A stretch of DNA of 64,000 bases from NCBI GenBank assembly GCA_958295825.1, contig OY282375.1:665489-729488 (forward strand), written 5' to 3'. Positions 5,969-36,417 of the stretch are shown in pieces. Position numbers and translations under genes: made by a program. The notes beneath the pieces are model-generated. The model saw only the letters and a program-made list of their open reading frames with translations, was not told where the DNA came from and made no database searches. Numbering within the stretch: position 1 is the stretch's first letter; each line of letters begins with the position of its first letter. This stretch comes from an uncultured Candidatus Entotheonella sp. (lineage in GTDB: Bacteria; Tectomicrobia; Entotheonellia; Entotheonellales; Entotheonellaceae).

Positions 5969-6045
5969 GGTACCCCCGAGACGATTCGAACGTCCGACAC
6001 ACGGCTCCGGAGGCCGTTGCTCTATCCATGCTGAGCTACGGGGGC
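5969..6045 (-). tRNA. tRNA-Arg (anticodon CCG)
   Basis: Minus-strand sequence GCCCCCG-TA-GCTC-AGCATGGATA-GAGC-A-ACGGC-CTCCGGA-GCCGT-GTGTC-GGACG-TTCGAAT-CGTCT-CGGGGGT-A-CC folds as a 77-nt cloverleaf. It has a 7-bp acceptor stem, a GTTCGAAT T-loop and an anticodon loop CT-CCG-GA. Confidence 0.8.
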
Positions 6046-6157
6046 ACGGCTGAACGAGGCCATACTATAACTGAGTTTGCAGGGACCGGACAACACCATT
6101 CTCTCAGCCTGGCAGCAGCGCAGACGTCAACGCCGCGGTCGTGCTATAGTTCGCCGC

Positions 6158-6766
6158 ATGCACGGCAATCCACAGAAAGACTCACGAGGCGTTTCGCCTT
6201 CCTTCAGCATAAAACAGAAGTTGCGTCCTGGCTGTTCGTGGTTTCGGCAGTGGCGCGGCTTGGCGCTTCTGGCTGTCATTGGGTTGACGGTTTGGGGCTG
6301 CGGTTACATGCTCATCGGTGCGCCGTCGGCCAGGCTCGACCAGCGGGTGGCCGTGGAGCCGTTCGCCAACGAAACGCGCGAACCCGGGGTGGAACATTAC
6401 GCCACCGCGGCGCTGCGCCAGGCGCTGATGCAGGGCCGCGGGTTCGTGCTGACCTCGGCAGCCGCGGCGCCGACGCGGGTACAGGGCCGCGTTCGCCGGT
6501 TGCGCGCCACGGCGCTGTCGTACGGCTCGAACGACAACGTGCTGGAGTACCGCCTTGAAGCCGACTTCCGCATCGTCGTGCTGAGCGGGGAGGAGCCGCA
6601 GCCGTTGCTGCAGCATGACATCCCGGCGCGGGCCGAGTATTTGGTGTCGCGCACCGGGGACGTGCGCGAGGAGGCCGTCGCGCGCGAGGCCGCCCTGGCC
6701 CTGCTGGCGCGGCAGTTTGCCGAGCGCTGCGCCGCCTGGCTGACCATCGCCTTGTTGGAAGAGTGA
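6158..6766 (+). CDS. lptE: LPS-assembly lipoprotein LptE-like
   Basis: Signal-peptide-like LALLAVIGLTVWGCGY with a Cys lipobox. Body ...ATALSYGSNDNVLEYRLEADFRIVV... resembles LptE. Stop overlaps holA start, the conserved lptE-holA arrangement. The true start may be a downstream TTG near 6221. Confidence 0.55.
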   Translation: MHGNPQKDSRGVSPSFSIKQKLRPGCSWFRQWRGLALLAVIGLTVWGCGYMLIGAPSARLDQRVAVEPFANETREPGVEHYATAALRQALMQGRGFVLTSAAAAPTRVQGRVRRLRATALSYGSNDNVLEYRLEADFRIVVLSGEEPQPLLQHDIPARAEYLVSRTGDVREEAVAREAALALLARQFAERCAAWLTIALLEE

Positions 6767-6770
6767 CCGC

Positions 6771-7778
6771 ATGCCGCGTCTTGCCATCGCCGAGCTCTGG
6801 CGTCGATTGGACCAGGGAACCATCGATCCGTTCTACCTCTTCTTTGGCCAGGAAGCCTACCTGATCCGCGAGTACACCGAGACCCTCACGGCCCGCATTC
6901 TCGGCGCCGCGCCACGCGACTTCAATTTCGACCGTTACGCCGTGACGGATCGCGACAGCCTCGCGGAGGCGCTGGGAACGGCCCGCACCCTGCCCGTCAT
7001 GGCGGTGCATCGCGTGGTGGTGGTGCAGGATTTACAGGCGTTGCGCAAGGCCGATTGGAAGCTGTTGGCAGGCTACGTGACGTCGCCTTCCGAGAGCACG
7101 GCGTTGATCGCCGGCAGCCGCGACAGCGAGCCGAAGAAGTTTCCCGATTTCGTGTGGAAGCACGCGGTGGCGGTGGCCTGCGCGCCGCTGGAGGGCGGCA
7201 ACCTGCGCGGCTGGGTGGCCAAGGCGATGTCGGCGGCGGGCTACCGCATGACCGACGAGGCGATTCGCGGCCTGTTGCAAGACCATGACCCCGACCTGCG
7301 AATTCTGGAGCGCGAGATCGAGAAGCTGTGCACCTACGTGGGCGAGCCGGGGGAGGTGAGCCTGGAGGACGTGCAGGCGGTGGGGCAGGCGTCGCGGCAG
7401 CATTCCCTTTTTGCGCTGTCCGACGCGCTCGGCGGCCGTCAGCCGGGGCCGGCGTTGCTGGAAATCGACCACCTGCTCAATCAGGGTGAGCCGCCGCTTG
7501 TCGTCATGAGCATGATCGTGCGGCACTTCCGCCTGCTGTGGAGCATCAAGCAACTCGGCGGCCAAGACCAGGACCGCTACCGTATCGCCAAGACGTTGCG
7601 CTTGCCGCCCAACGTGTGTCGCACTTTGATGGCGCAGAGCGGCGCCTTTTCCGCCGAGCGGCTGCAGGCATTGTACGGCGCGGCTTTGGAGGCGGATTTG
7701 ACGTTCAAGAGCACGAACAAACCCCCACGGGCCATTCTGGAGGGTTTGATTCTCCAGTTATGCGCGGGGGTTTACTAG
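6771..7778 (+). CDS. holA: DNA polymerase III delta subunit
   Basis: 335 aa. N-terminus ...DPFYLFFGQEAYLIREY... and length typical of HolA. Follows lptE. Confidence 0.85.
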   Translation: MPRLAIAELWRRLDQGTIDPFYLFFGQEAYLIREYTETLTARILGAAPRDFNFDRYAVTDRDSLAEALGTARTLPVMAVHRVVVVQDLQALRKADWKLLAGYVTSPSESTALIAGSRDSEPKKFPDFVWKHAVAVACAPLEGGNLRGWVAKAMSAAGYRMTDEAIRGLLQDHDPDLRILEREIEKLCTYVGEPGEVSLEDVQAVGQASRQHSLFALSDALGGRQPGPALLEIDHLLNQGEPPLVVMSMIVRHFRLLWSIKQLGGQDQDRYRIAKTLRLPPNVCRTLMAQSGAFSAERLQALYGAALEADLTFKSTNKPPRAILEGLILQLCAGVY

Positions 7779-8053
7779 GCGGACTGACTGGCGAGCGCCG
7801 CCACCTTGCGGGTGAGGCGGGAGATGCGCCGGGAAGCCTGGTTCCTGTGGATAATGCCCTTGGTGGTGGCTTTGCCCAAGGCGCGAACCGCAGCGGGAAG
7901 CTCGGCTTGAGCGGTGGGAACGTCGTTGTGCGCGACGGCCGAGGTGACGCGCCGGATGGCGGTGCGAAGGGCCGAGCGCAGCATGGTGTTACGCTCGTTG
8001 CGCTTTTTGTTCTGGCGGTTGCGTTTCAGTGCTGAGGGATGACGATTGGCCAT
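7775..8053 (-). CDS. rpsT: 30S ribosomal protein S20
   Basis: 92 aa, MANRHPSALKRNRQNKKRNERNTMLRSALRTAIRRV...KGIIHRNQASRRISRLTRKVAAL, the S20 pattern. Confidence 0.9.
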   Translation of the reverse strand: MANRHPSALKRNRQNKKRNERNTMLRSALRTAIRRVTSAVAHNDVPTAQAELPAAVRALGKATTKGIIHRNQASRRISRLTRKVAALASQSA

Positions 8054-8178
8054 AAATGAAGTCTCCTTTTGGTGGGCGGGCAGTATAGCAATTCGAGTTT
8101 CTGATTTCCAGTTTTTAGTTTCTGGTTTTTAGTGAACCCGCTTTTAGTGGAAAGAGGTTCAGGGATAAAGGGCGCATC

Positions 8179-11100
8179 ATGGAGCGGCGTGGCAACAGGG
8201 GTGGGCGACATATCGAGACCTACGCGCATACCGACAAGGAGCGTGTGAACAACCCGCCCGTCGGCTTGGTTACACCGGACACCGACCGCGACGCGGGCCG
8301 CAGGACCTACGCTCACGACCCGCACCTGGACCCACAGTTGTCCTGGGCCGGCAAGGCGGAGCATACCTCGTTCGAGGTGCCGACCGTGTCGCTGCACGTG
8401 CACGAACGCATCGACCCGCGTACGATCGTCGAAACAGCGCGCAAGCGCAACGGTGCGGAACCGCAGATGTCCTTGTTCGCCGCGCCGGAGGAAAACCCGC
8501 CGCTCCGTCAGGCTATCGAATTCTACCGGCACCGTCACAACTGGACCAACCGCCTGATTGCCGGCGACAGCCTGCTGGTGATGAACAGCCTGATCGAGAA
8601 GGAGGGCCTTGGCGGGCAGGTGCAGACGGTCTATCTCGATCCGCCCTACGGCATCCGTTATGGCTCCAACTTCCAGCCCTTCGTGAACCGGCGCGAGGTC
8701 ACCGACGGCAGGGACGAGGACCTGACCGGCGAGCCGGAGCAGATTCGCGCCTTCCGGGACACCTGGGAGCTTGGCATTCATTCCTACCTCGCGTATCTCC
8801 GGGACCGCTTGTTACTGGCGCGTGAGCTTTTGCATGAGAGCGGCAGCTGTTTCGTGCAAATCGGCGATGAGAACGTCCACCGCGTCGGCGTGGTCATGGA
8901 CGAGATCTTCGGTGCGGATAATCGGATGACGACGATTTCGTATGCGACAACCGGAGGGAGTTCCGCGAACACGTTGCCGCAGGTGGCGAACTATCTGCTC
9001 TGGTACGTAAAGGACAAGGGGCGCGCCAAGTACCGTCAGTTGTACGAGGAATTGACGCGGAAGGAAATTGTCGAGCAGATGAATTGGGATGCCATGGTTG
9101 AATTGGAGGATGGCAGTTGTAGATCGCTGTTGGCCACTGAGAAAGCTGATCCAGACAGAAACTTGCCATCGGGTGCCCGGCTGTTCCAACGCGCCATGCT
9201 GACATCACAACACGAGTCGCGCACCGGACGGTCTGAACCATACAAAGTCAGCGGAAGAACGTATATCTGTCCACGGAATCGGCAGTGGCAAGTGAGCAAA
9301 GAGGGCCTTGATCGTTTGACAGAAATTGGTCGCTTGGATTTCAGCGGACAGCACGCCAGACTGGCCTGGAAACATTACGAGGAGGAGATTCCGGGGAGGC
9401 GGTTAAACAATGTCTGGGCGGATCTGGCTCGCCCGGTCGACAAGCTTTATGTGGTTCAGACAGCGATTAAACTCCTGCAGCGAGCCATCCTGATGACCAC
9501 CGACCCCGGCGACTTGGTGTTCGATCCCACCTGCGGCTCCGGCACCACCGCCCACGTTGCCGAGCAGTGGGGCCGCCGCTGGATCACCTGCGACACCTCG
9601 CGGGTAGCCATCGCCATTGCCCGGCAGCGGCTGATGACCGCCAATTACGATTATTACGAGCTGGCCCATCCCGACGAGGGCGTCGGCGCCGGGTTCCGCT
9701 ACCGCAGCGTCGCCACCGTGTCGGCGCGAACCTTGGCCTACGACGAGCCGCCCAACGAGACCTTGCTCTACGACCAGCCGCATCGCGATCGCCGGAAGGC
9801 CCGCGTCACCGGTCCGTTCACCGTGGAGGCGGTGCCGGCTCCCGTCGTCAAGGCCGTGGATGAGATCATGGATGCTCATCCCGACCCCGGCGCAAGCCCC
9901 GCCGCCGACCTTTCCATCGCTCGCTCCGGCGAGACCCTGCGGCAAAGCGACTGGCGCGACGAATTGCTCAAGACCGGCATTCGCGGCAAGGCCGGACAGC
10001 GCATCTCGTTCGCGCGGCTGGAACCGTTGCCGGGAACCCGCTGGCTGCACGCCGAGGGCGAGACGCGCCCGGACACCGCCGGCGCCGACCACGTCCACGA
10101 CCCCGCAACCGCCTACACGTCCACGCCCCTTGTCGCCTCGTTCGGGCCGGACCACGCACCCCTGGAGCAGCGGCAGGTCGCCCGCGCCATCGAGGAGGCG
10201 CAAAGCCTCGTCCCCAAACCGAAGATGATTGTCTTCGCGGCGTTCCAGTTCGACCCCGAGGCGGCCAAAGACATCGACGAGACCCACTGGCCCGGCGTCA
10301 CGCTGCTCAAGGCGCAGATGAACGCCGACTTGCTGACCGAGGACCTGAAGAAGAAGCGGGCGAGCAACGAGAGCTTCTGGCTGATCGGCCAGCCGGACGT
10401 GGAAGTTTCGAGTTTTCAGTTTTTGGTTTTTGGTGAGGGGCAGCGGAGGATTGGCGGCTATGGAGCGTTCAGGAAGCTATCGGGACTTGAGCGTTTGGAA
10501 GAGATCAATCGGCTTGATTGGCAGGCTCTATGCCTCTACGCGCTCCTGTCCCAGGGAAGAGACGTATGGCGTTACCTCGCAGATACGCAGGGCTGGGATT
10601 TCGATAGCGGCCAATCTCGCGGAAGGCCAAGCCAGCAACACGAGCGGGGAGTTCCGGCAGTTTCTTGGAATAGCCCAAGGCTCGTTGGCGGCATTGGAAA
10701 CGCTGCTGACGATCTCGCAGAATTTGGGATATCCGACCTCGCCGGATGCCGCAGGGTTATTGAGCGACTGCGAGGCGATCGGCGGGTTGTCGGCGGGCTT
10801 GCAGAAGTCGCTGAAGCCCTGGATTTTCCCATCCATCCCCACGCTCGAACCTATCAACTCACAACTCAAAACCTGCACAGCCTCGCGGTGCGCGGCTTTG
10901 ACTACTACAACACCAAGACCGGCAACGTCGAATCCGGCGGCGCGGACCGCATCGCCCTGTGGATGCTCGACCCGGATTACGACGGGCGCAGCCTGTTTCC
11001 GCGCCAGGTGTTCTTCCCCATGGCCGGCGGCAATGACGGCTGGGCGAGATTGGCCCGTAATCTCAGAGCCGAAATCGACCAGGGCCGGATGGAAGCCTAC

Positions 11101-11208
11101 CGCGGCACGGTGTCGCTGCCGTTCGAGGCGGGAGAGCATGGACGGGCGGCGGTGAAGATTGTGGACGACCGGGGGATCGAGAGTTTGAAGATCGTGGAGT
11201 TGGGGTGA
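8179..11208 (+). CDS. mod: Type III restriction-modification Mod (N6-adenine DNA methyltransferase) subunit carrying an in-frame about 150-codon insertion
   Basis: DPPY motif (VYLDPPYGIRYGSNFQPF) followed by AdoMet motif I (LVFDPTCGSGTTAHVAEQ), the beta-class order. Mod C-terminal signature ...GFDYYNTKTGNVESGGADRIALWMLDPDYDGRSLF...AAVKIVDDRGIESLKIVEL. The codons between ...LIGQPDVEV (about 10405) and LTTQNLHSLAVRGFDYY (about 10860) are not Mod-like. Confidence 0.85.
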   Translation: MERRGNRGGRHIETYAHTDKERVNNPPVGLVTPDTDRDAGRRTYAHDPHLDPQLSWAGKAEHTSFEVPTVSLHVHERIDPRTIVETARKRNGAEPQMSLFAAPEENPPLRQAIEFYRHRHNWTNRLIAGDSLLVMNSLIEKEGLGGQVQTVYLDPPYGIRYGSNFQPFVNRREVTDGRDEDLTGEPEQIRAFRDTWELGIHSYLAYLRDRLLLARELLHESGSCFVQIGDENVHRVGVVMDEIFGADNRMTTISYATTGGSSANTLPQVANYLLWYVKDKGRAKYRQLYEELTRKEIVEQMNWDAMVELEDGSCRSLLATEKADPDRNLPSGARLFQRAMLTSQHESRTGRSEPYKVSGRTYICPRNRQWQVSKEGLDRLTEIGRLDFSGQHARLAWKHYEEEIPGRRLNNVWADLARPVDKLYVVQTAIKLLQRAILMTTDPGDLVFDPTCGSGTTAHVAEQWGRRWITCDTSRVAIAIARQRLMTANYDYYELAHPDEGVGAGFRYRSVATVSARTLAYDEPPNETLLYDQPHRDRRKARVTGPFTVEAVPAPVVKAVDEIMDAHPDPGASPAADLSIARSGETLRQSDWRDELLKTGIRGKAGQRISFARLEPLPGTRWLHAEGETRPDTAGADHVHDPATAYTSTPLVASFGPDHAPLEQRQVARAIEEAQSLVPKPKMIVFAAFQFDPEAAKDIDETHWPGVTLLKAQMNADLLTEDLKKKRASNESFWLIGQPDVEVSSFQFLVFGEGQRRIGGYGAFRKLSGLERLEEINRLDWQALCLYALLSQGRDVWRYLADTQGWDFDSGQSRGRPSQQHERGVPAVSWNSPRLVGGIGNAADDLAEFGISDLAGCRRVIERLRGDRRVVGGLAEVAEALDFPIHPHARTYQLTTQNLHSLAVRGFDYYNTKTGNVESGGADRIALWMLDPDYDGRSLFPRQVFFPMAGGNDGWARLARNLRAEIDQGRMEAYRGTVSLPFEAGEHGRAAVKIVDDRGIESLKIVELG
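10460..11155 (+). CDS. Four-helix-bundle protein (TIGR02436-like, '23S rRNA intervening-sequence protein' family) ORF embedded in mod in the +1 frame
   Basis: MERSGSYRDLSVWKRSIGLIGRLYASTRSCPREETYGVTSQIRRAGISIAANLAEGQASNTSGEFRQFLGIAQGSLAALETLLTISQNLGYP...LQKSLK matches the 4HB family over the first ~118 codons (to about 10810). GGAGGA RBS sits 8 nt upstream. The frame then stays open to 11155, so the 3' end is uncertain. Confidence 0.55.
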   Translation: MERSGSYRDLSVWKRSIGLIGRLYASTRSCPREETYGVTSQIRRAGISIAANLAEGQASNTSGEFRQFLGIAQGSLAALETLLTISQNLGYPTSPDAAGLLSDCEAIGGLSAGLQKSLKPWIFPSIPTLEPINSQLKTCTASRCAALTTTTPRPATSNPAARTASPCGCSTRITTGAACFRARCSSPWPAAMTAGRDWPVISEPKSTRAGWKPTAARCRCRSRRESMDGRR

Positions 11209-11259
11209 TGGAGAGACAGAAGCAGGGCGGGGAAAATCATTGAAAAGATCGAGAGCGTG

Positions 11260-12066
11260 ATGGCGCCAACGAAAAAAGGCAAAGCGCTTGAACGGTTGCG
11301 GAAGGCGCTGGACGAAATCGCTGAATTGAAACAATTATCGTCGGATTCTCCGCAATTCAAGACATGGCGGAGAAATGCAGGGGTTGCCATCAGAGAAACG
11401 TTTGGTAGTGCTTCAGATCATATCAGGGAGTTTAGAGGATCACAGTTTGCTGTTTCTGGTCGATCTGATTCCGAAATTAGAAAGGCCTATATACGAGATT
11501 TGGAATCGGATGCGGCGATGCTTCAATCCATGATTGATGAGGTTAATGAGTATTGGAAAGACGAGAGCGAGATGCCAGGATCTTCCGATAGTCACGGAAA
11601 CGAACAGGTAAACACGAAAGAAGTCTTCATCGTTCATGGCAGGGACGAAGGTGCCCGCGAAAAGGTGGCGAGGTTTCTGGAAAGGTTGGGACTCGATCCC
11701 GTGGTGCTGCACGAACAGCCGAATGAGGGCCGCACGATTATTGAAAAGTTTGAGGGTTATGCGCACGTCCGGTTTGCTGTGGTTCTGTTGACGCCAGACG
11801 ACAGAGGCGGACTTCAGGACGATGAGGGCAGTTTCAAGCCCCGCGCAAGGCAAAACGTCATTTTCGAGTTCGGGTACTTCATCGGAAAGCTCGGTCGGGA
11901 ACGCGTCTGCGCCTTGGTGAAGGGGGAGGTGGAAAGACCGTCAGATTACGATGGCGTTATTTACATTACACTTGATGATTCGGACGGGTGGAAAATGAGA
12001 CTTATCCTGGAGCTGAAGAACGCCGGATACGATGTCGACGCGAACCGGGCATTTACTACACCATGA
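11260..12066 (+). CDS. Two-domain protein: uncharacterised N-terminal domain plus C-terminal TIR-like (COG4271/pfam10137-type) domain
   Basis: C-terminal ...KEVFIVHGRDEGAREKVARFLERLGLDPVVLHEQPNEGRTIIEKFEGYAHVRFAVVLLTPDD... fits the TIR-like nucleotide-binding domain. The N-terminal ~110 aa are homologous to the N-terminus of the protein at 32978-34261. Located between mod and res. Confidence 0.7.
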   Translation: MAPTKKGKALERLRKALDEIAELKQLSSDSPQFKTWRRNAGVAIRETFGSASDHIREFRGSQFAVSGRSDSEIRKAYIRDLESDAAMLQSMIDEVNEYWKDESEMPGSSDSHGNEQVNTKEVFIVHGRDEGAREKVARFLERLGLDPVVLHEQPNEGRTIIEKFEGYAHVRFAVVLLTPDDRGGLQDDEGSFKPRARQNVIFEFGYFIGKLGRERVCALVKGEVERPSDYDGVIYITLDDSDGWKMRLILELKNAGYDVDANRAFTTP

Positions 12067-12080
12067 ACGCAGCCCAGGCA

Positions 12081-12164
12081 CATGCGGTTCGATCTCGACG
12101 ACATGGAACTCGAATTGAAGGAAATTTTTGGGCGCAAGGTCGATCTGGTCAGTCGGCGGGGATG
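12081..12164 (+). pseudogene. C-terminal remnant of a minimal nucleotidyltransferase (MNT/MntA-type antitoxin) gene
   Basis: Translates MRFDLDDMELELKEIFGRKVDLVSRRG*, the conserved MNT C-terminus (...LEELLGRKVDLV). Only 27 codons remain. Confidence 0.45.
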
Positions 12165-12247
12165 AGGCGAGTCCCAACGATCTGCGCAGGAACGGCCTCC
12201 TGAAGTCCGCCCGGGTGATCTATGGACCGTGACGCCCCGCACGTCGT

Positions 12248-15193
12248 ATGGACGACGGCGCACGGGCAAATTCCGGAATGGCTGGCGCCGCCAACGTCCG
12301 ACGAACCCCTGGAGAGCGAATAGTGGCCCGCACGACAATCGATCAATTGATCGTCAATTCTCCCTACGAAGAGCCGGCGGAACACTGGTAGTACGACCGG
12401 GTTACACGCTCGTTCGACCGTGCAGAAGGCCGGCGGCCGGCAGGCTATGTCGTCGCTTCCCAGGCTTCCAGGGCGTTTGACGACCCCGGCGCGTTTGTCG
12501 AAATCCCCTTGGTCAATCAGATCCGGCCGCGCGTCAAGGCGTGGCGTGAGGCGGGATATCCGGGCGTCACCGGCATGACCAAGCGGCTGCTTACGCACTG
12601 GACCGACCCGGAGGAGTTTGACAGCCGGCGTTTCTTCTTCTGCCAGGTCGAAGCGGCGGAGACGCTTATCTGGTTCACCGAAGGGCCGGCGGTCGAAAAG
12701 GTCGGCGTGGAGATTCCCTCCGATGGCGGCGCGTTCAGACGGCTGTGCGCAAAAATGGCGACAGGCTCAGGCAAAACCGTCGTCATGGCGATGGTGGCGG
12801 CGTGGCACGTCCTGAACAAGGTGACGTCGCCCCAGGACACCCGGTTCGCCAGGCACATTCTGGTTGTCGCGCCGGGGTTGACGGTCAGGAACCGCCTGGC
12901 GGTGTTGGAGCCGTCCCACCCGGAGAACTATTACGACGCCTTCCGCATTGTGCCGCCGGCTCTGCTCGATAAGCTGCGACGGGGCAAGGTCGCAATCCGC
13001 AACTGGCACGCGCTCAACTGGGAGGGTGAGGACAAAATCGCCGCCCGGCGCGGCGTGGACAAGCGCGGCGCCAAAAGCGACGAGGCCTATGTCCGCGACG
13101 TGCTCGGAGACATGGCGCGAGCGCGGAACATCCTGGTCATCAACGACGAAGCGCATCATGCCTGGCGCGTTCCTGCCGGACCCAAGCTGAAGGGCGTGGC
13201 CAAGGCCGACGTCGACGAGGCCACGAAATGGATTGGCGGGCTCGACCGCATCCACGGGGCACGGGGCATTCTCGCCTGTTATGACTTCTCGGCAACCCCA
13301 TTCGCGCCGTCAGGCAAGCAGAGTTCCGAAGAGGCGCTGTTCGGCTGGATCGTGAGCGACTTCGGCTTGAACGACGCTATCGAATCGGGTTTGGTCAAGA
13401 CGCCGCGCGTGGTGATCCGGGACGACGCAGTGCCCGATGCCAAGAGCTACAGATCCCGCCTCTATCACATCTACAACGATGCGGAGGTCAAGGACGACCT
13501 GAACCGCCGCGCCAAGACGGAAGAACCGCTGCCCGATCTGGTCCTGAACGGCTATTACCTGCTTGGCTATGATTGGCGCGAGACGGCGAAAGACTGGCGT
13601 GAGAAGGGATTCCAGACCTCGCCGGTCATGATTACCGTTGCCAACCGCACGGAGACGGCAGCTCGCATCAAGTACGCGTTTGATCACAAGAGGGTCCGCA
13701 TCGAGGAGCTATGCGACCCGGAGCGAACCCTGCACATCGATTCGAAGGTGCTTGAAGCGGCCGAGGCTGCAGCGGAGCCCATTTCGGACATTGACGCGGG
13801 AGAACGCGCGGGAGGTGGAGACGATGGCCCTTCGACGCAGCTCACCAAAAAACAGCAGGCCGAGTGGTTGCGACGGCGGGTGGACAGTGTGGGCCGGGTC
13901 GGCAAGGAGGGTGAGCGAATACTGAACGTGATTTCCGTCGGCATGCTGTCCGAAGGATGGGACGCGAAAACCGTGACCCACATCATGGGGCTGCGCGCGT
14001 TTACCAGCCAGCTTCTCTGTGAGCAGGTGGTCGGGCGCGGCTTGCGCCGGACCGCTTATGAGGTGGACCCGGATAACGGCCTGTTCCAGCCGGAATACGT
14101 CAATATCTTCGGTGTGCCCTTTGCCTTTTTACCTCATGAGGGTGGAACGGACGGCCCACCGCCGCCGCCGGAACCAAAGACGGCTATCGAGCCGGTAGCG
14201 GACAAGGCGGGTTTCGAAATCTCCTGGCCGAACGTGGTCCGCATCGACCACGGCTTCCGTCCGCACCTGTCCCTGGATTGGCAGGCGCTGCCTCCCCTGG
14301 CACTGGATGCCAGCCAGACGGCTCAACTGGCGGAGCTTGCTCCGATCGTCGAAGGCAAGCCCGACGTGTCGAGGATCGAGGCCATCGATTTGCAAGAACT
14401 GGCGGCGGAGTTCCGCACGCAGCGCATCGTCTTTGAGACCGCGCGGGACGTGTACGATCTGATGCAACCGAATTGGCCGGGCGGCAAGGCGTTGCTGCTG
14501 GCTCAGCTGGTACGGTTGATCGAGCAATTCGTCCGTTCGGACCGCATCAGGATGACCCCGGCTCTGTTCCGGCACGACGATCTCAAGCGCCGCCTCGTCA
14601 TCACGTTGAACATGACCAAGGTCGTGCAGCATGTCTGGGAGGCAATTCGCTTCGAGAACACCGAAAGACCGGAGCCGGTGTTTGACCGGGACCGTCCTGT
14701 CCGTTCTACGGGTGACATGGCGACGTGGTACACGGGCAAGCCCTGCGAGCGCGCGGCGCGCAGCCACGTCAACTTCTGCGTCTACGACAGCACGTGGGAG
14801 GCGTCGGAAGCCTTCGTGTTCGACCGTGCCGACGAGGTAGCCGCCTGGGTAAAAAACGATCACCTTGGCTTCGAGGTGTTCTACGTTCACCGAGGCGTGG
14901 TGCGGAAGTATCGCCCGGACTTCCTGATCCGGCTCGGCTCGGGCGACATGATGGTTCTGGAGACCAAGGGCCGTGACAGCGATCAGGACCAAACCAAGCG
15001 TCGGTTCCTCGACGAATGGGTGCGTGCCGTCAATGCTCATGGTGGCTTCGGTCGCTGGTCTTGGGACGTGTCGAAAAATCCCGGTGATGTCCGGGACATT
15101 CTCGCAAGGCATCTACGTGCTGCGGGCAACGTCGCGGCGATGGAAACACCCAGGGTTCGGGGCGACGCGTCGAACCGGGTTTCTGGCCGGTAA
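12248..15193 (+). CDS. res: Type III restriction enzyme Res subunit (SF2 helicase plus C-terminal PD-(D/E)xK nuclease), frame interrupted by an in-frame TAG at 12389-12391
   Basis: Helicase motifs ATGSGKT, VINDEAHHAW, SEGWDAKTV and QVVGRGLRR. C-terminal nuclease region FEVFYVHRGVVRKYRPDFLIRL...VLETKGRD. The N-terminal Res-like stretch ...TIDQLIVNSPYEEPAEHW*YDRVTRSFD reads from the ATG at 12248 through a TAG in the same frame as the 12509-15193 ORF. Confidence 0.8.
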
Positions 15194-15365
15194 GATCTCC
15201 GTGCCGGAGGACTTCGACCGCATGGCCTCCGCCGGAATCGCAGCCTTGTTCGAAACGGACGAGTGAGCTTCCTTCTCAAGACACCCCGGTAAAGCGCTGA
15301 TCTGCCGCTGCCACGGTGTCCCGCGTCCATCATGGCCTCGGTATATATCTACGGAGTTAGCATCA

Positions 15366-17339
15366 ATGGTTACCCATATTGGCGTTGATACCGGCGGAAC
15401 GTTCAGCGATTTCATCCGCATCGAGAATGGCGCGCCGGTCATTCATAAAGTCTTGTCGACCCCGGGCAACCCGGCGCAGGCGGTGTTGGAGGGGCTGGCG
15501 CACCTGTGTCCCGATCTCGTCGGGGCGGAGGTGGTGCACGGCTCTACCGTGGCGACCAATGCGCTGCTGGAGCGCAAGGGCGCTCGCACGGCGCTGGTGG
15601 CCACGCGGGGGTTCGAGGACGTGTTGGAGATTGGGCGTCAGACGCGCCCGCACCTGTATGACCCGTTCGTGGAGAAGCTGCCGCCGCTGGTGCCGGCGCG
15701 CATGCGGTTCGGCGTTGCCGAACGGCTGGCCTACGACGGCGAGGTGCTGGAACCCCTGGCGGCGGCGGAAATCGAGCGGGTTATCGAGCGCGTGCGGCGT
15801 TCCGGGGCGCAGTCGCTGGCCGTCTGCCTGCTGCACGCCTACGCCAACCCGGTGCACGAGGCGGCCATCACGCAGGCGGCGCAGCGCCTCGGCATCCCGG
15901 TGTCGGCGTCGCATCAGGTGCTGCCGGAGTTTCGCGAATACGAGCGCTGCAGCACCACGGTGGTGAACGCCTATCTGCGCCCGGTGATGCAGCGTTACCT
16001 GCAGAGCCTGTCGGCGGCGCTGCAGGGCGCCAAGCTGCGGGTGATGCGCTCCAACGGCGGCGTGATGTCGGCGGCGCGGGCGCACCAGGAAGCGGTGCAC
16101 ACGGTGCTGTCCGGCCCGGCGGGCGGCGTTGTGGGGGCGTTTCGCAGCGCCCGCGAGGTCGGCTATGCCCGCGTCATCACGTTCGACATGGGCGGCACGT
16201 CCACGGACGTGTCGCTGTGCGAGGAACAGCCGCGCACGACCACGGAGACGATTGTAGCCGGCTGTCCGGTCAAGGTGCCGGTGCTGGACATCCACACGGT
16301 AGGGGCGGGCGGCGGCTCGCTGGCGACCATCGATCCGGGCGGCGCGCTACAGGTTGGCCCGCAGAGCGCGGGCGCTGATCCGGGTCCGGTGTGTTACGGC
16401 AAGGGCGCGGGGCTGACCGTCACCGACGCCAACCTGTACCTGGGGCGCCTGCACCCGGACGGATTCCTGGGCGGCAACATGCGGCTCGACGTGCCGCGCA
16501 CGCGGGCGGCGGTGGCGGACTTCGCGGGGCGCAGCGGCCTGAGCCCGGAGGTGCTGTGCCAGGGCATCCTGGAGGTGGTGAACGCCAATATGGAAGGCGC
16601 CATCCGCGTCATTTCGGTGGAACGCGGCCACGACCCGCGTGAGTTTGCCCTGGTGTCGTTCGGCGGCGCCGGCGGCATGCACGCGGCCGATCTGGCGCGG
16701 CGGTTGTCCATCCCCACGGTGCTGGCGCCGGCGCATCCCGGCATTCTGTCGGCCTACGGCATGCTGGTGTCCGACTACGTGCAGGAATACGCCCAGACCC
16801 TGTTGCTCCCGGTGGCGGAACTGACGAGCGAGCGAGCGGCGGCGGCGTTCCGGGAGTTGGAGGCGCGCGGCCGGGAGACGATGCGCGAGGAAGGCGTGGC
16901 GCCGCAGGCCATCGAGATCAGCCGTTTCGTTGACATGTGCTACGTGGGCCAGTCGTTCGAGCTGGTGGTGCCGTGGAGTGACCATTGCAGCGAGGAGTTT
17001 CACCGCCGGCACGAAAGTCGCTACGGCTATGCCGACAGCACGCGGGCGACGCAGGTCGTCAACGTGCGCATCCGGGTGGTGGGGCCGGCCGGGGTGGCGC
17101 AGCGCCCGCTGCGGCGGGCGGACGGCAACGGCGGCGGTGACGCGCACGTCGACACGGCGCCCATGTGGGGCGAGAAGGGCTGGCTGCAAACGCCGGTTTA
17201 CGACCGCCAGCGCCTGCAGCCCGGTCAGCACTTGCCCGGCCCGGCGCTGATTACCGAATACAGCGCGACCACCGTGGTGCCGGACGATTTCACGGCGCGC
17301 ATCGACGATTACTACAATCTGGTACTGCAGCGGCGCTGA
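15366..17339 (+). CDS. hyuA: Hydantoinase A / 5-oxoprolinase subunit, second paralog
   Basis: 657 aa, MVTHIGVDTGGTFSDFIRIE... The family is conserved throughout. Confidence 0.9.
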   Translation: MVTHIGVDTGGTFSDFIRIENGAPVIHKVLSTPGNPAQAVLEGLAHLCPDLVGAEVVHGSTVATNALLERKGARTALVATRGFEDVLEIGRQTRPHLYDPFVEKLPPLVPARMRFGVAERLAYDGEVLEPLAAAEIERVIERVRRSGAQSLAVCLLHAYANPVHEAAITQAAQRLGIPVSASHQVLPEFREYERCSTTVVNAYLRPVMQRYLQSLSAALQGAKLRVMRSNGGVMSAARAHQEAVHTVLSGPAGGVVGAFRSAREVGYARVITFDMGGTSTDVSLCEEQPRTTTETIVAGCPVKVPVLDIHTVGAGGGSLATIDPGGALQVGPQSAGADPGPVCYGKGAGLTVTDANLYLGRLHPDGFLGGNMRLDVPRTRAAVADFAGRSGLSPEVLCQGILEVVNANMEGAIRVISVERGHDPREFALVSFGGAGGMHAADLARRLSIPTVLAPAHPGILSAYGMLVSDYVQEYAQTLLLPVAELTSERAAAAFRELEARGRETMREEGVAPQAIEISRFVDMCYVGQSFELVVPWSDHCSEEFHRRHESRYGYADSTRATQVVNVRIRVVGPAGVAQRPLRRADGNGGGDAHVDTAPMWGEKGWLQTPVYDRQRLQPGQHLPGPALITEYSATTVVPDDFTARIDDYYNLVLQRR

Positions 17340-32895: not shown

Positions 32896-32977
32896 GGTTG
32901 TTGGGCAGGAATTTGGCAGTTTTGTTGTTGCTTGGGAGTGGAATAGGGATAAAGGAAAGGATGGAGGAGAGCAATTG

Positions 32978-34261
32978 ATGAGGAAAGATAAGGCGCTTGG
33001 GCGATTGCAGAAAATTTTGGATGAAGTTGATGGATTGAAGCAATTTTCTTCGTCGAGTTCTCCGCAATTTGAGAGATGGTGGAGAAACGCGGAGCTTGCT
33101 ATCGAGAAAGTATTTGGCAGTGACTCGAGTCATATCAAACGTTTTAAGAATGCAAGGGATGCTAGAGTAAATGTTGGAGTGCTTCTTTTTGTTAATTTCG
33201 GTCCGGTTGGTCCTGATGGGGTTAAGAAGGATTACATACAAGATTTAGAGTTCTATGCGGCTATGATTCAGTCTATGATTGATGAAGTCGGTGAGTATTG
33301 GGAGGATGGGAAAGAGGTATTGTCATCTTCTAGTTCTTCTAGCAGTCTTGGAAATGAGCAAATAATGACTGGCGATTTGAAGAAGAAAAAGGTCTTTCTG
33401 AGCCACAAGAGCGATGATAAGGAACTCGTGATCGACTTTAAGGAAACCTTGAAAATTCTAGGTTACGACCCATGGTTGGATGAAGATGCGATGTCTGCCG
33501 GTACGAGACTTGAACAAGGACTTCTTGAAGGCATGCAGGATTCCTGCGGCGTTGTTTTTTTTGTTACTTCGTCTTTCAAGGATGAGGGTTTTTTGAGCAC
33601 CGAAATTGACTATGCGATTCAAGAGGAGCGAAAGAAGGGTAATAAATTCAAAATTGTTACCTTGCAATTTGTTGATGCTGATGGCAACAGGAGTGAAATT
33701 CCGGGATTACTCAAGCGTTATGTTTGGAAAAAGCCGAAAACAAGGCTTGAAGCACTACGAGAGATTGTTCATGCGTTGCCTGTTGCTTCTTTGGGTATTG
33801 GCTGGCGGGGTGAAATTGGAGGAGTCGTTGTTAGGTCTGAGGGGGATGAAGGTGTTCTTGTTGGGTCTGAAAGGAGATTGGTAGTTGCAAGACTTTCTGA
33901 GGAAGCAAAGACTTTGCTGAAGACGGCAGTGGATAATAAAAAACAGATTGGGTATTTTTCTTATGGCAGTGGTGGTGTTGGTGAGCTTATTACTATGGGA
34001 GGAGAGGAGTTTTTGTCGTCTGATAAGGAGACGCTTGAAACAATGGCTAAGTGGAGAGGAGGTTTGAAGGATTTAGAAAGAGAAGGGTATGTCAAAAAGG
34101 AAGTTGAAGGAGAAGGAGATCAAGGTTTATATACGGTTACGCGAGAGGGTTATGAGGCAGCAGAATATTTGGAGATGGAAATTCAGGCGATACCAGAAAA
34201 AGTAAGAGTGTCGGTTGTTGGGAAAGAGGGTGATGAGGTTAGAAGCAGTTTCATAACTTAA
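32978..34261 (+). CDS. TIR-domain protein with the same uncharacterised N-terminal domain as the 11260 protein, plus a C-terminal extension; AT-rich
   Basis: N-terminus MRKDKALGRLQKILDEVDGLKQFSSSSSPQFERWWRNAELAIEKVFGSDSSHIKRF... is about 50% identical to the 11260 N-terminus. TIR motif KKVFLSHKSDDKELVIDFKETLKILGYDPWLDEDAMSAGTRLEQGLLEGMQDSCGVVFFVTSSFKDEGFLSTEIDYAIQE. The stop codon lies inside the IS left inverted repeat. Confidence 0.75.
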   Translation: MRKDKALGRLQKILDEVDGLKQFSSSSSPQFERWWRNAELAIEKVFGSDSSHIKRFKNARDARVNVGVLLFVNFGPVGPDGVKKDYIQDLEFYAAMIQSMIDEVGEYWEDGKEVLSSSSSSSSLGNEQIMTGDLKKKKVFLSHKSDDKELVIDFKETLKILGYDPWLDEDAMSAGTRLEQGLLEGMQDSCGVVFFVTSSFKDEGFLSTEIDYAIQEERKKGNKFKIVTLQFVDADGNRSEIPGLLKRYVWKKPKTRLEALREIVHALPVASLGIGWRGEIGGVVVRSEGDEGVLVGSERRLVVARLSEEAKTLLKTAVDNKKQIGYFSYGSGGVGELITMGGEEFLSSDKETLETMAKWRGGLKDLEREGYVKKEVEGEGDQGLYTVTREGYEAAEYLEMEIQAIPEKVRVSVVGKEGDEVRSSFIT

Positions 34262-34294: not shown

Positions 34295-34768
34295 ATGGCT
34301 GAAAGGAGGCCTGATATGAACCGCCATCAGAGTGAACTAAGCGATGAGCAGTGGGAAAAAATCGCTCCCTTCCTGCCCAAACCCCAAGCCTCGCCTTGGG
34401 GTGGACCCAAACCAATCCCCAATCGCCCTTGCTTCGAGGGCATCTTGTGGGTCCTTCGCAGCGGCGCCCGCTGGAAAGACCTGCCAGCGTCCTATCCTTC
34501 TCCCAGCACCTGTTGGCGTCGTCTGTGCCTCTGGGAGGAGCAAGAGGTGTGGCTTAAGGCATGGCGCGCCTTTCTGGCGCAACTTGACCGCCAAGGACAG
34601 CTTGATTGGGCCGAAACCTTTGCTGACGGCAGCTTTGCCCCGGCCAAAAAAGGGGGCCTTGCGTCGGCCCTACCAAGAAGGGCAAAGGTACGAAGTGGAG
34701 GGGGGTGGCAGACGGCCAAGGTGTTCCTCTGGGAAACCTCCTGGAATCGGCGTCCGCAGCGGAAGTGA
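34295..34768 (+). CDS. IS427-like transposase OrfA (DUF4096 N-terminal domain)
   Basis: MAERRPDMNRHQSELSDEQWEKIAPFLP...GGPKPIPNRPCFEGILWVLRSGARWKDLP... Confidence 0.8.
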   Translation: MAERRPDMNRHQSELSDEQWEKIAPFLPKPQASPWGGPKPIPNRPCFEGILWVLRSGARWKDLPASYPSPSTCWRRLCLWEEQEVWLKAWRAFLAQLDRQGQLDWAETFADGSFAPAKKGGLASALPRRAKVRSGGGWQTAKVFLWETSWNRRPQRK

Positions 34769-35100
34769 CCTTGATCGAGCGGGCCTTGACACAGGTGTCG
34801 GTGCCGCGTCGTGGCCGCGGTCGGCCTCGCCAAAAGCCCGCGCGCCTCATTGATGACAAGGCGGCGGACGCAGACGCCCTTCGCCAGCGTCTGCGGTCTC
34901 GGGGCATTGATTTGATTTGCCCGCATCGCAGAAACCGTAAACGAGCCTCCTTGCAGGATGGTCGCAAGCTGCGCCGTTACAAACGTCGTTGGAAAGTTGA
35001 GCGAAGATTTCCTGGGTGGGCAATTTTCGTCGCTTGGTGGTGCGCTGGGATCGCTATATTGAGGTCTACCGCGGCTTCTTTCATATCGCGTGCATGCTGA
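34645..35100 (+). CDS. IS427-like transposase OrfB (DDE C-terminal part), expressed as an OrfAB fusion by -1 frameshift or transcriptional slippage at AAAAAAG
   Basis: The -1 frame from the A-run reads ...KRGPCVGPTKKGKGTKWRGVADGQGVPLGNLLESASAAEVTLIERAL...LIDDKAADADALRQRLRSRGIDLICPHRRNRK...KRRWKVERRFPGW..., typical of IS427 OrfB. Confidence 0.7.
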   Translation, partial: QKRGPCVGPTKKGKGTKWRGVADGQGVPLGNLLESASAAEVTLIERALTQVSVPRRGRGRPRQKPARLIDDKAADADALRQRLRSRGIDLICPHRRNRKRASLQDGRKLRRYKRRWKVERRFPGWAIFVAWWCAGIAILRSTAASFISRAC

Positions 35101-35529: not shown

Positions 35530-35841
35530 TTATTTCTTGGTCTCAGAGATGTTGAAGATTGATCGCACTACGACCAAGAACAAACCTACCACCGTAGCGG
35601 TAGTGCCTCCGATGAGCGCAATGAGGACAGAATCAGATAAAGCGAAGGAAAACAATGTGAAGTTGGGAATGGATATTCCCTGTGCGAGAATGCAGGCACC
35701 GATTCCGAGAAGCCACACGACAATCAGCCAATATACACGATTGCTGTATTTTTTTCGGTCGTTCAGCAAGTCCTCCAGGGCTTGGGTGCGGAGTTTCTCC
35801 TGAGCGAGATGCTGTTCTTTTAGGAGGAGTTGTTCCTCCAT
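35530..35841 (-). CDS. Small 2-TM membrane protein, putative toxin partner (PanT-like) of the adjacent DUF4065 protein
   Basis: MEEQLLLKEQHLAQEKLRTQALEDLLNDRKKYSNRVYWLIVVWLLGIGACILAQ...LIALIGGTTATVVGLFLVVV: N-terminal coiled coil plus two TM helices. Begins 60 nt after the DUF4065 gene stop on the same strand. Confidence 0.5.
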   Translation of the reverse strand: MEEQLLLKEQHLAQEKLRTQALEDLLNDRKKYSNRVYWLIVVWLLGIGACILAQGISIPNFTLFSFALSDSVLIALIGGTTATVVGLFLVVVRSIFNISETKK

Positions 35842-35901
35842 GGGGGTGCCTTCGTCACCTTGGGGAGGCCTAGTCTCTGAAAGACTTGACGGTATCTTCA
35901 A

Positions 35902-36417
35902 CTATTCCGCTGCCAGCTTGGAGAAATGCTCTTTGAGCAGATCTATCCCAATGTCAGTACCAAAAAGCAATTCATTAGAATTATCTGCCATGACTTTAGA
36001 CCACGGACTGTCCGCCTCGTGTGTTTTCATGGATAACTGCCCAGCCGTCCATTGCCCATACACTCCCCAAATTGCGTCGAGCAGTTTCTGTGTGTCTTTG
36101 TCTTCTTCGGGCACCTTCGGTGTTACCAATTCCAGTCTGCCTGATGCGGCGCTGCCGCGGTATTCTATGGTCGTTATGAGGTCTGTTATGGGGTCAGTAC
36201 CCCAAGATTTTAGGTCCTGGTACAGCGAAGGAATGACGGGACCATAATACCAAGCTTCCACCTGCTCGTTTATGAGCGGCTTCTGGGTAATTCCGAGGTG
36301 CCATCCATGGGCAAAGTAGACCAGCTTCTGCACCTTCATGTGGGTGATAGGTCTTTCCCGTCCGGCACGTTCCAGGAAATAGTTAGCTATGGCACAGGCT
36401 CTGTAGGGAGTAGCCAT
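35902..36417 (-). CDS. DUF4065 (Panacea domain) protein, SocA/PanA-type antitoxin-like
   Basis: MATPYRACAIANYFLERAGRERPITHMKVQKLVYFAHGWHLGITQKPLINEQVEAWYYGPVIPSLYQ..., the conserved N-terminal core of DUF4065/Panacea. Confidence 0.7.
   Translation of the reverse strand: MATPYRACAIANYFLERAGRERPITHMKVQKLVYFAHGWHLGITQKPLINEQVEAWYYGPVIPSLYQDLKSWGTDPITDLITTIEYRGSAASGRLELVTPKVPEEDKDTQKLLDAIWGVYGQWTAGQLSMKTHEADSPWSKVMADNSNELLFGTDIGIDLLKEHFSKLAAE

Follow-up and report, generated by a model that had tools for sequence, protein, structure and literature searches.

A restriction-modification locus of Candidatus Entotheonella whose mod-res interval is probably the decayed middle of a conserved five-gene operon

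Results

A TIR gene and a decayed toxin-antitoxin pair lie between mod and res

We analyzed a stretch of 64,000 nucleotides from an uncultured Candidatus Entotheonella sp. (contig OY282375.1), hereafter the window, and within it the interval between the methyltransferase (mod) and restriction endonuclease (res) genes of a type III-like restriction-modification (R-M) locus. The gene order, all on the plus strand, is mod (8179-11208), a gene for a protein with a TIR domain (11260-12066), relics of the toxin-antitoxin (TA) genes mntA and hepT, and res (12323-15193). The locus is flanked by housekeeping genes, with lptE, holA, and rpsT upstream and hydantoinase/oxoprolinase genes downstream. Taking origin, decay, and mechanism jointly, this 1.1-kb interval is probably the decayed middle of a conserved five-gene operon, mod-PDC-S35(TIR)-mntA-hepT-res. 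Loci of related genomes are numbered L001, L002, and so on, L001 being that of a sister genome. The features of the window locus are as follows.

8179-11208, plus strand: mod, type III-like DNA methyltransferase, 1009 amino acids (PF01555, E 5e-28; PADLOC MTase_III PDLC03632, E 6e-148; alignment with 13 relatives)
10460-10819, plus strand: four-helix-bundle (4HB) gene (23S rRNA intervening sequence (IVS) protein, TIGR02436; Pfam 23S_rRNA_IVP) nested in mod in the +1 frame (Pfam E 2e-28; TIGR02436 E 2e-27)
11209-11259, plus strand: 51-bp spacer from the mod stop to the TIR start (DNA alignment; direct repeat D13, 11175-11188 and 11247-11260)
11260-12066, plus strand: intact PDC-S35 (TIR) gene, 268 amino acids from ATG 11260 (PF10137, residues 123-240, E 5e-40; PADLOC PDC-S35)
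11350-11589, plus strand: hypervariable segment of the N-terminal domain, codons 31-110 (window/L001 alignment; synonymous and nonsynonymous divergence, dS and dN)
11866-11868, plus strand: GAG codon for the Glu of the NVIFEFG motif, predicted catalytic Glu of a TIR NADase (aligned to NVVFEFG of 9lmq and 7un8)
12063-12232, plus strand: pseudogene of MntA, the MNT nucleotidyltransferase antitoxin (nucleotide alignment with intact relatives; BLAST)
12222-12323, plus strand: pseudogene of HepT, the HEPN RNase toxin (nucleotide alignment; intact homologs in L006, L012, and others)
12323-15193, plus strand: res, restriction endonuclease of the BPTD_3080 family (NCBIfam NF046055, 1101 bits for the L001 ortholog; PF04851; family-conserved N terminus)
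12389-12391, plus strand: in-frame TAG at res codon 23 (CAG at the same place in L001)

The two host genes have the layout of a type III R-M system. Mod is a beta-class methyltransferase, in which motif IV (DPPY) precedes motif I (FDPTCGSGTT) with a central target recognition domain (TRD) between them. Res, encoded downstream, is a superfamily 2 helicase with GSGKT (Walker A) and DEAH motifs and a C-terminal D...ETK nuclease motif of the PD-(D/E)xK type. All of these can be read directly off the sequence (VYLDPPYG, FDPTCGSGTT, MATGSGKT, NDEAHH, and RPDF...VLETKG).

The original prediction placed a gap of 1 kb between the mod stop at 11208 and a res start at ATG 12248. The mod stop stands, and the res start has to be moved to GTG 12323, because ATG 12248 sits within the hepT relic (12222-12323), is out of frame in the sister genome, and precedes the family-wide N terminus, (M)ARTTIDQLI(V/I)NSPY, which begins at 12323. 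The GTG overlaps the HepT stop as TAGTG. With res starting there, the mod-res gap measures 1114 bp.

The MNT remnant reported earlier in this gap is real (E 2e-15 in a tblastn search of the whole window with the MntA of an intact relative), although it is larger than the 27 codons assigned to it, spanning 12063-12232. It keeps the start and two codons of mntA, in an ATGA overlap with the end of the TIR gene. About 138 bp, among them the GSx10DxD catalytic motif, have then been lost in an internal deletion, and the 3' half carries two 1-nt deletions. At the DNA level, the relic and L002 share 86% identity over 177 nt (E 2e-58). A search for a HEPN partner had been proposed, and a remnant of the partner is indeed present, 3' of the MNT fragment: the first 9 codons of hepT are joined in frame to the last 24, with the Rx4H motif deleted, and the hepT 3' end gives a BLAST match with E 2e-15. 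Relatives carry an MntA-HepT pair in the usual type VII form, with an intact 103-amino acid MNT protein and a 113-amino acid HepT encoded by overlapping reading frames. Unlike these, the window copies are pseudogenes that lack both the MNT GSx10DxD and the HepT Rx4H motif, which are present in L006 (GSVLRDDFGPDSDID and RNRMIH, respectively). Judged by its sequence, the TA pair is disabled here by internal deletions, and both predicted active sites are gone.

The TIR gene and the TA pair belong to one inherited block

We looked up the genomic context of close TIR homologs (73-82% identity). The sister genome L001 is 98.2% identical over 20.8 kb and has the same synteny and the same TA deletions, together with an intact res. 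L005 and L006 occupy the same chromosomal site as the window (lptE-holA-rpsT ... hydantoinase synteny), whereas L002-L004 lie at a different chromosomal site and encode a Mod of 857 amino acids without the 4HB insert. In both groups the operon is intact, reading mod-TIR-mntA (103 amino acids)-hepT (113 amino acids)-res, and every junction is an overlap of 1-11 nt, with stop/start overlaps of 1-4 nt in L002-L006.

Relatives at two chromosomal sites have the order and the overlapping junctions in common, and so the TIR gene and the TA pair were inherited together, as parts of a single block. The TA deletions are common to the window and L001, so the decay of the pair predates the split of these two genomes. 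The earlier proposal that three cargo genes (4HB, TIR, and MNT) had separately targeted this operon is therefore not borne out for TIR, MntA, and HepT; the 4HB insert alone is a separate event at this locus.

The mod-res junction of the R-M family is an embedding slot

An outgroup was sampled by Mod alone in JGI metagenomes, giving 80 loci whose Mod is 51-73% identical, among them 71 mod-res pairs. The TIR gene was found in none of these 80 loci. The mod-res junctions of the 71 pairs fall into four classes.

33/71 pairs: gap of 30 bp or less, with a stop/start overlap TAATG, TGATG, or TAGTG
3/71 pairs: gap of 31-150 bp
5/71 pairs: gap of 151-600 bp
30/71 pairs: gap of more than 600 bp, mostly with co-oriented cargo

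At least 10 types of cargo occupy the outgroup junctions, as listed here.

8 loci: AAA_15/AAA_21 ATPases (AriA-, NsnB-, and Gabija-like matches; PD-T4-4-like), with or without a partner gene
5 loci: MntA-HepT
DUF6978 plus DUF1828 (PDC-M24)
Bro-N (PDC-S13)
KilA-N (PDC-S22)
GmrSD (HEC-05/PDC-M55C)
HNH protein
Schlafen/AlbA_2 protein
DUF488 plus ASCH
Several unknowns

In the window, the embedded genes lie between mod and res on one strand with them, homologous hosts have empty junctions, and the TIR gene is also found away from R-M systems. In this R-M family, the mod-res junction serves as an embedding slot for defense cargo. The suggestion that the mod-res space is an insertion site for defense genes accordingly holds at the level of the family (33/71 empty and 30/71 with cargo), and fails for separate targeting by TIR and TA genes in the window. 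The AT-rich spacers of 207-238 bp in L087, L088, and L091 were searched for TIR or TA relics and returned one weak match of 21 amino acids (E 0.005).

The original prediction had named as evidence against itself a conserved mod-X-res operon in which X is an accessory subunit. The gene order is indeed conserved, but the TIR protein is not an R-M subunit, because its gene is absent from the 71 outgroup pairs and 54 of 80 TIR homologs do not stand beside mod.

In a neighbor-joining tree of 69 Res proteins, all TIR-bearing systems form one clade, whose only other member is L087, with its non-coding spacer of 207 bp. TIR and Res distances are correlated (Pearson r = 0.82, 18 loci).

The block recurs in at least eight phyla

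Full-length homologs of the TIR protein number more than 8000. For a survey of its loci, each GTDB species was represented by one genome and searched with a TIR alignment. The best 80 loci, mostly from metagenome-assembled genomes (MAGs), were retained and then searched by tblastn with Mod, Res, MntA, and HepT. The loci are labeled as Ca. Entotheonella (closest), Nitrospirales, Binatia, Gamma- and Alphaproteobacteria, Chloroflexota (Caldilineaceae and Dehalococcoidia), Latescibacterota, Rhodothermales, and Spirochaetia. Several bins have names suggestive of sponge samples, and the nearest relatives of the composite are MAGs from many phyla. Among the best 80 loci, Mod stands beside TIR in 26, from at least eight phyla and mostly sponge or marine MAGs.

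24/80 PDC-S35 loci: Mod end at the TIR start
2/80 PDC-S35 loci: Mod nearby
54/80 PDC-S35 loci: no Mod adjoining TIR
22/26 loci with Mod: Res downstream
3/26 loci with Mod: Res upstream, in the order res-mod-TIR (Rhodothermales)
12/26 loci with Mod: MntA and HepT between TIR and res
2/26 loci with Mod: MntA only
1/26 loci with Mod: HepT relic only

Between phyla, Mod and Res retain 60-90% identity, and this implies that the five-gene block has spread horizontally within this mostly sponge-associated and marine community. The slot between TIR and res holds a PD-T4-4-like ATPase with a partner gene in Caldilineaceae (in L032 that pair lies between mod and TIR) and an RmrA-like M78 peptidase with a DUF4411 PIN protein in Nitrospirales; in other Mod-bearing loci it contains two small open reading frames (ORFs) or nothing. 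The TIR gene is broken by insertion sequence (IS) elements in two Rhodothermales loci, L064 (10654-12021) and L079 (10738-12256), the transposases being of the IS1595 family and the rve type (IS481-like). MntA-HepT pairs may be stacked: L013 has two to three of them between TIR and res (10857-16800), and L011 has an additional pair upstream of mod (5981-6620). In L022 (11549-12420), a ThsB-like TIR gene and a SLATT gene follow HepT on the opposite strand.

The 54 loci without Mod have heterogeneous neighbors, often housekeeping genes. We considered whether all stand-alone TIRs are relics of the R-M composite and rejected this, as C-terminal relics of Mod were found only in L030, L061, and L016, and Res is kept in L067.

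The TIR protein is a predicted NADase with an additional N-terminal domain

The two-domain TIR-like gene recognized earlier at 11260-12066 is confirmed both by the PF10137 match and by a full-length match to the PADLOC PDC-S35 profile PDLC05005 (E 9e-88; residues 8-265 on profile positions 4-262 of 264). Its start, ATG 11260, is conserved in the family as MA(P/Q)TKKGKALERL. The gene lies in the GC trough of the locus, at 47-49% compared with 60-72% in the flanks. In an AlphaFold model computed from an alignment of 26 sequences (pLDDT 75), a disordered linker at residues 105-117 separates a helical N-terminal domain (helices 6-24, 32-49, 54-60, and 71-99) from an alpha/beta domain at 121-265.

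By both structure and sequence, the C-terminal domain is closest to the TIR domains of TIR-STING/Cap12 (9lmq and 7un8), PycTIR (8jsj), and SARM1, and the motif RARQNVIFEFGYF aligns with RDNVVFEFGLF of Cap12. The Glu of the FEFG motif, which we take to be the catalytic residue of TIR NADases, is invariant in 26 TIR homologs. The window protein thus resembles the CBASS effector Cap12/TIR-STING and the Pycsar effector PycTIR in having a PF10137-type TIR domain with the core RxNVxFExGxF.G and its conserved Glu. Unlike them, it has no STING, SAVED, or cyclic nucleotide monophosphate-binding domain and no cyclase gene in the operon; in their place stands the N-terminal helical domain of about 100 amino acids, a proposed sensor. 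Its NCBIfam Cap12 scores are 31-40 bits, far under the 450-bit cut-off. Since neither a cyclic-nucleotide sensor domain nor a cyclase gene is present, we rejected membership in CBASS or Pycsar.

The N-terminal domain is hypervariable and recurs in a paralog

About 300 differences separate the window from L001 over the 20.8 kb compared, and 88 of them are concentrated in 11250-11749. For N-domain codons 31-110, dS is 0.72 and dN is 0.28, whereas the TIR domain has a dS of 0.04 and a dN of 0.02. All five close alleles differ in the hypervariable segment, indels included. The high synonymous divergence points to allele replacement by recombination and not to targeted mutagenesis or to point mutation alone. 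An Avd-like 4HB gene nearby had raised the idea of a diversity-generating retroelement; this was rejected, as the window contains no near-identical template repeat.

The only repeat match to the N-domain in the window, at 75-77%, is a paralog at 33 kb (32975-34261, plus strand, 428 amino acids; N-domain 46% identity, E 1e-25). This protein combines the N-domain with a canonical TIR_2 domain (PF13676) and a C-terminal extension of about 170 amino acids. Its fusion to a second type of TIR indicates that the N-domain is a portable module, and it is presumably a sensing one. The variable segment of the window allele at mod-res is nearer to this paralog than are the alleles of L001, L002, and L006. 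The paralog lies in an island with a frameshifted IS5-like transposase gene (34295-35100) and, on the minus strand, a SocA/Panacea antitoxin gene and a gene for a small membrane protein (35530-36417). Long Foldseek matches of the N-domain with low TM scores (a flavodiiron protein and eIF2B) were dismissed as spurious.

Insertions in mod and a nonsense codon in res

The 4HB cassette described earlier inside mod is confirmed by its Pfam match. In the window its stop codon is lost, and the ORF spans 10430-11155. The insert amounts to about 150 codons and is missing from 12 other Mods in the alignment. Its site is fixed, falling between residues 736 and 748 of the L002 Mod, which lacks the insert, and is occupied in the window lineage (window 10403-10870), in L014 (9283-9624), and in L011 (9295-9621), the distant Nitrospira and Binatia 4HB proteins at this site being only about 49% identical. 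The Mod frame is open, with 0 stops, throughout the insert in the window, L006, L014, and L011, giving about 125 dual-coding codons. An AT-rich motif, TTTCGAGTTTTCAGTTTTTGGTTTTTGGTGA, marks the 5' edge of the insert (10406-10436) and also occurs twice, overlapping, in the rpsT-mod spacer (8091-8135), and the 3' edge (10851-10874) looks like a loose inverted copy of it. The motif may represent the terminus of a small element of a mobile or IVS-like kind. Elsewhere, mod is interrupted by other inserts at differing positions (L004, 5700-6900; L019, 7634-8430; L012, 8076-8677).

The TRD of the window Mod (~8950-9500, residues ~290-440) resembles that of L025 (Halieaceae) and not those of L005 and L006 at the same site, and a GC dip to 54-56% coincides with it. 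Together, these two observations suggest TRD swapping and hence a change of specificity.

The 51-bp spacer between mod and TIR is restricted to the window and L001; other loci have a TAATG or TGATG overlap there. Its sequence resembles a degenerate duplication of the final ~17 mod codons. In L001 the spacer is in frame and lengthens the TIR ORF; the window copy differs by 1 nt and is thereby out of frame.

The res reading frame is intact in L001 and is interrupted at codon 23 by the TAG in the window. A Res product of 894 amino acids from the next start, TTG 12509, was absent from the protein collection. Restriction has probably been lost in this genome through the TAG, leaving Mod and the TIR gene. 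This nonsense codon is younger than the TA decay.

Discussion

Origin and proposed function of the composite

We favor the reading that an autonomous single-gene TIR effector and a type VII TA pair lodged in the mod-res junction of a type III-like R-M system of the BPTD_3080 family, and that the composite then spread as one unit, both vertically and by horizontal gene transfer (HGT), among sponge-associated and marine bacteria. In the window, the block has reached a state in which the TA pair is dead, res has later gained a nonsense codon, mod contains the nested 4HB gene, and the TIR gene is intact with its N-domain remodeled by recombination. The operon is probably transcribed from the rpsT-mod spacer, its genes being co-transcribed from the mod promoter, and the overlapping stop and start codons would have coupled their translation ancestrally. 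A promoter and terminator scan of 7700-15500 gave counts at chance level, with no signal above chance inside the operon.

In this model, the TIR protein would act as an autonomous abortive-infection effector. Its variable N-domain would sense a phage cue and drive oligomerization of the TIR domain, whereupon NAD+ would be hydrolyzed. The TIR protein would form a second layer of defense behind restriction, and MntA-HepT a further layer, now dead here. Autonomy is suggested by the persistence of an intact TIR gene where its neighbors decay and by a distribution that is mostly free of R-M.

Several points weigh against this reading. The structural model of the TIR protein is of only moderate confidence, and searches of its N-domain in Pfam and, with Foldseek, against the PDB detected no homolog of known function. 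PDC-S35 is a candidate defense family only, and a literature search for it found no paper testing the family. The mod-TIR overlap is broken in this genome by the 51-bp spacer, and the res TAG could be an assembly error. The TIR and Mod samples come from different collections (genomes and JGI metagenomes, respectively), and the trees are neighbor-joining trees on p-distances without support values. Finally, the TIR tree intersperses R-M-embedded and stand-alone TIRs, so that a single capture is supported by the Res tree only; TIR may instead have been captured several times within the same R-M clade, or R-M may have been lost repeatedly around TIR. The relic Mod ends upstream of TIR in L030, L061, and L016 favor repeated loss over multiple captures. 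The interspersed TIR tree, taken with the Mod relics, fits one old capture followed by repeated erosion of R-M around a surviving TIR gene; recurrent exchange may also have played a part.

Alternative explanations

Among the alternatives, a PrrC-like guard survives best, although we consider it unlikely. Here, Mod/Res would keep the TIR protein latent, phage anti-restriction factors that disable the R-M system would release it as an NADase, and MntA-HepT would contribute one more layer. In about 20 loci across phyla, the mod stop and the TIR start overlap, TIR remains directly 3' of mod even where res lies upstream of mod (L033, L064, and L079), and the TIR-bearing R-M systems form one long-lived clade; precedents exist in PrrC of EcoprrI and in the HEPN genes of R-M operons (PMC3710099; Payne et al. 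2024). However, 54 of the 80 homologs have no adjoining mod, most of them with housekeeping neighbors, and none of the 71 outgroup R-M pairs needs a TIR protein. In addition, TIR is intact where res is knocked out (the window) or where Mod/Res are degraded or reduced to relics (L007, L030, L061, and L016), and, conversely, R-M persists where IS elements broke TIR (L064 and L079). PrrC-like coupling therefore stays a minority hypothesis, kept alive by the strict position of TIR directly 3' of mod. We give similarly little credence to its fuller form, in which the operon would be an integrated, layered immune system with a Mod-tethered TIR NADase that fires on anti-restriction, a TIR-based analog of PrrC/EcoprrI in a type III R-M system spread by HGT through sponge microbiomes.

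Still less probable is an independent and recent insertion of three unrelated cargo genes (4HB, TIR, and MNT) into an R-M locus serving as a recombination hotspot. Variable occupation of the junction across the R-M family speaks for such a process, as do the variation of the TIR-res slot within the TIR-bearing clade, the presence of PD-T4-4 between mod and TIR in L032 but between TIR and res in Caldilineaceae, the restriction of the separately inserted 4HB to some lineages, and the deviating GC content of the TIR gene. Against it stand the TIR-MntA-HepT order with its overlapping junctions at two chromosomal sites and in at least eight phyla, the single TIR-bearing clade in the Res tree, the TA deletions in common with L001, by which the block predates the split of the genomes, and the lack of mobile-element hallmarks beside the TIR or TA genes. 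For TIR, MNT, and HepT at this locus, independent insertion is largely refuted.

That the TIR-like ORF encodes a nucleotide-binding regulator or housekeeping protein merely sharing the operon is very improbable: the original annotation of PF10137 read no more than predicted nucleotide-binding protein, one homolog bears the name "nucleotide-binding protein," and the literature search noted above found no experimental paper on PDC-S35, but the protein matches over its full length a family defined by embedding in defense systems, its nearest solved relatives are CBASS and Pycsar NADase effectors with the conserved Glu, its N-domain is hypervariable and recombining, its distribution is patchy with HGT across phyla, and the adjoining cargo slots hold known defense genes.

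Relation to known systems

Embedding itself is already known. The PDC candidates of PADLOC are genes found inside the operons of BREX, DISARM, Hma, and type I R-M systems, and their catalog includes PDC-S35 and PDC-S09 (Payne et al. 2024, 10.1101/2024.01.29.577857); type III R-M as a host is untreated in the main text of that paper, and the text of its supplement has no mention of PDC-S35 or PF10137. A literature search for BPTD_3080 found nothing. As in those embedded genes, the cargo described here is co-oriented between the genes of a multigene defense system that has insert-free homologous hosts. It also comes from the same catalog (PDC-S35, and MntA as PDC-S09; in relatives PDC-S13, PDC-S22, PDC-M24, PD-T4-4, and a GmrSD protein matching HEC-05). 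It differs in its host, a type III-like mod-res pair of the BPTD_3080 family, and in being no sporadic insert: its two modules form a stable block that is conserved across phyla together with the host.

PrrC in the type Ic EcoprrI locus offers a second comparison, and many HEPN families occur in R-M operons (PMC3710099). In common with PrrC/EcoprrI, the window locus has a gene for a suicide effector, here a predicted one, between R-M subunit genes, in what would be a layered defense. PrrC is found almost only in EcoprrI-type contexts, where the R-M enzyme holds it latent, whereas PDC-S35 lies outside R-M in 54 of 80 loci. PrrC is a HEPN RNase fused to an ABC ATPase, and the effector domain of PDC-S35 is a TIR domain, a predicted NADase. 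What is new here is the type III-like BPTD_3080 host, with its codon-sharp slot and its conserved five-gene composite.

Implications

For annotation, the res start is corrected and three pseudogenes are flagged. "Guilt by embedding" is extended from type I R-M, BREX, DISARM, and Hma to a type III-like mod-res family, in which the insertion slot is sharply defined as an overlapping stop/start codon, with about 40% of loci occupied by at least 10 types of cargo. The analysis also gives a handle on the PDC-S35 family as predicted NADases with a hypervariable, recombining helical domain that is a putative sensor. With its spread over at least eight phyla, the five-gene composite provides a natural series, from intact operons through loci in which the TA pair, res, or the TIR gene is dead to TIR genes with only R-M relics, in which it may be tested whether embedded effectors are only co-transferred and co-expressed with the R-M system or are functionally coupled to it.

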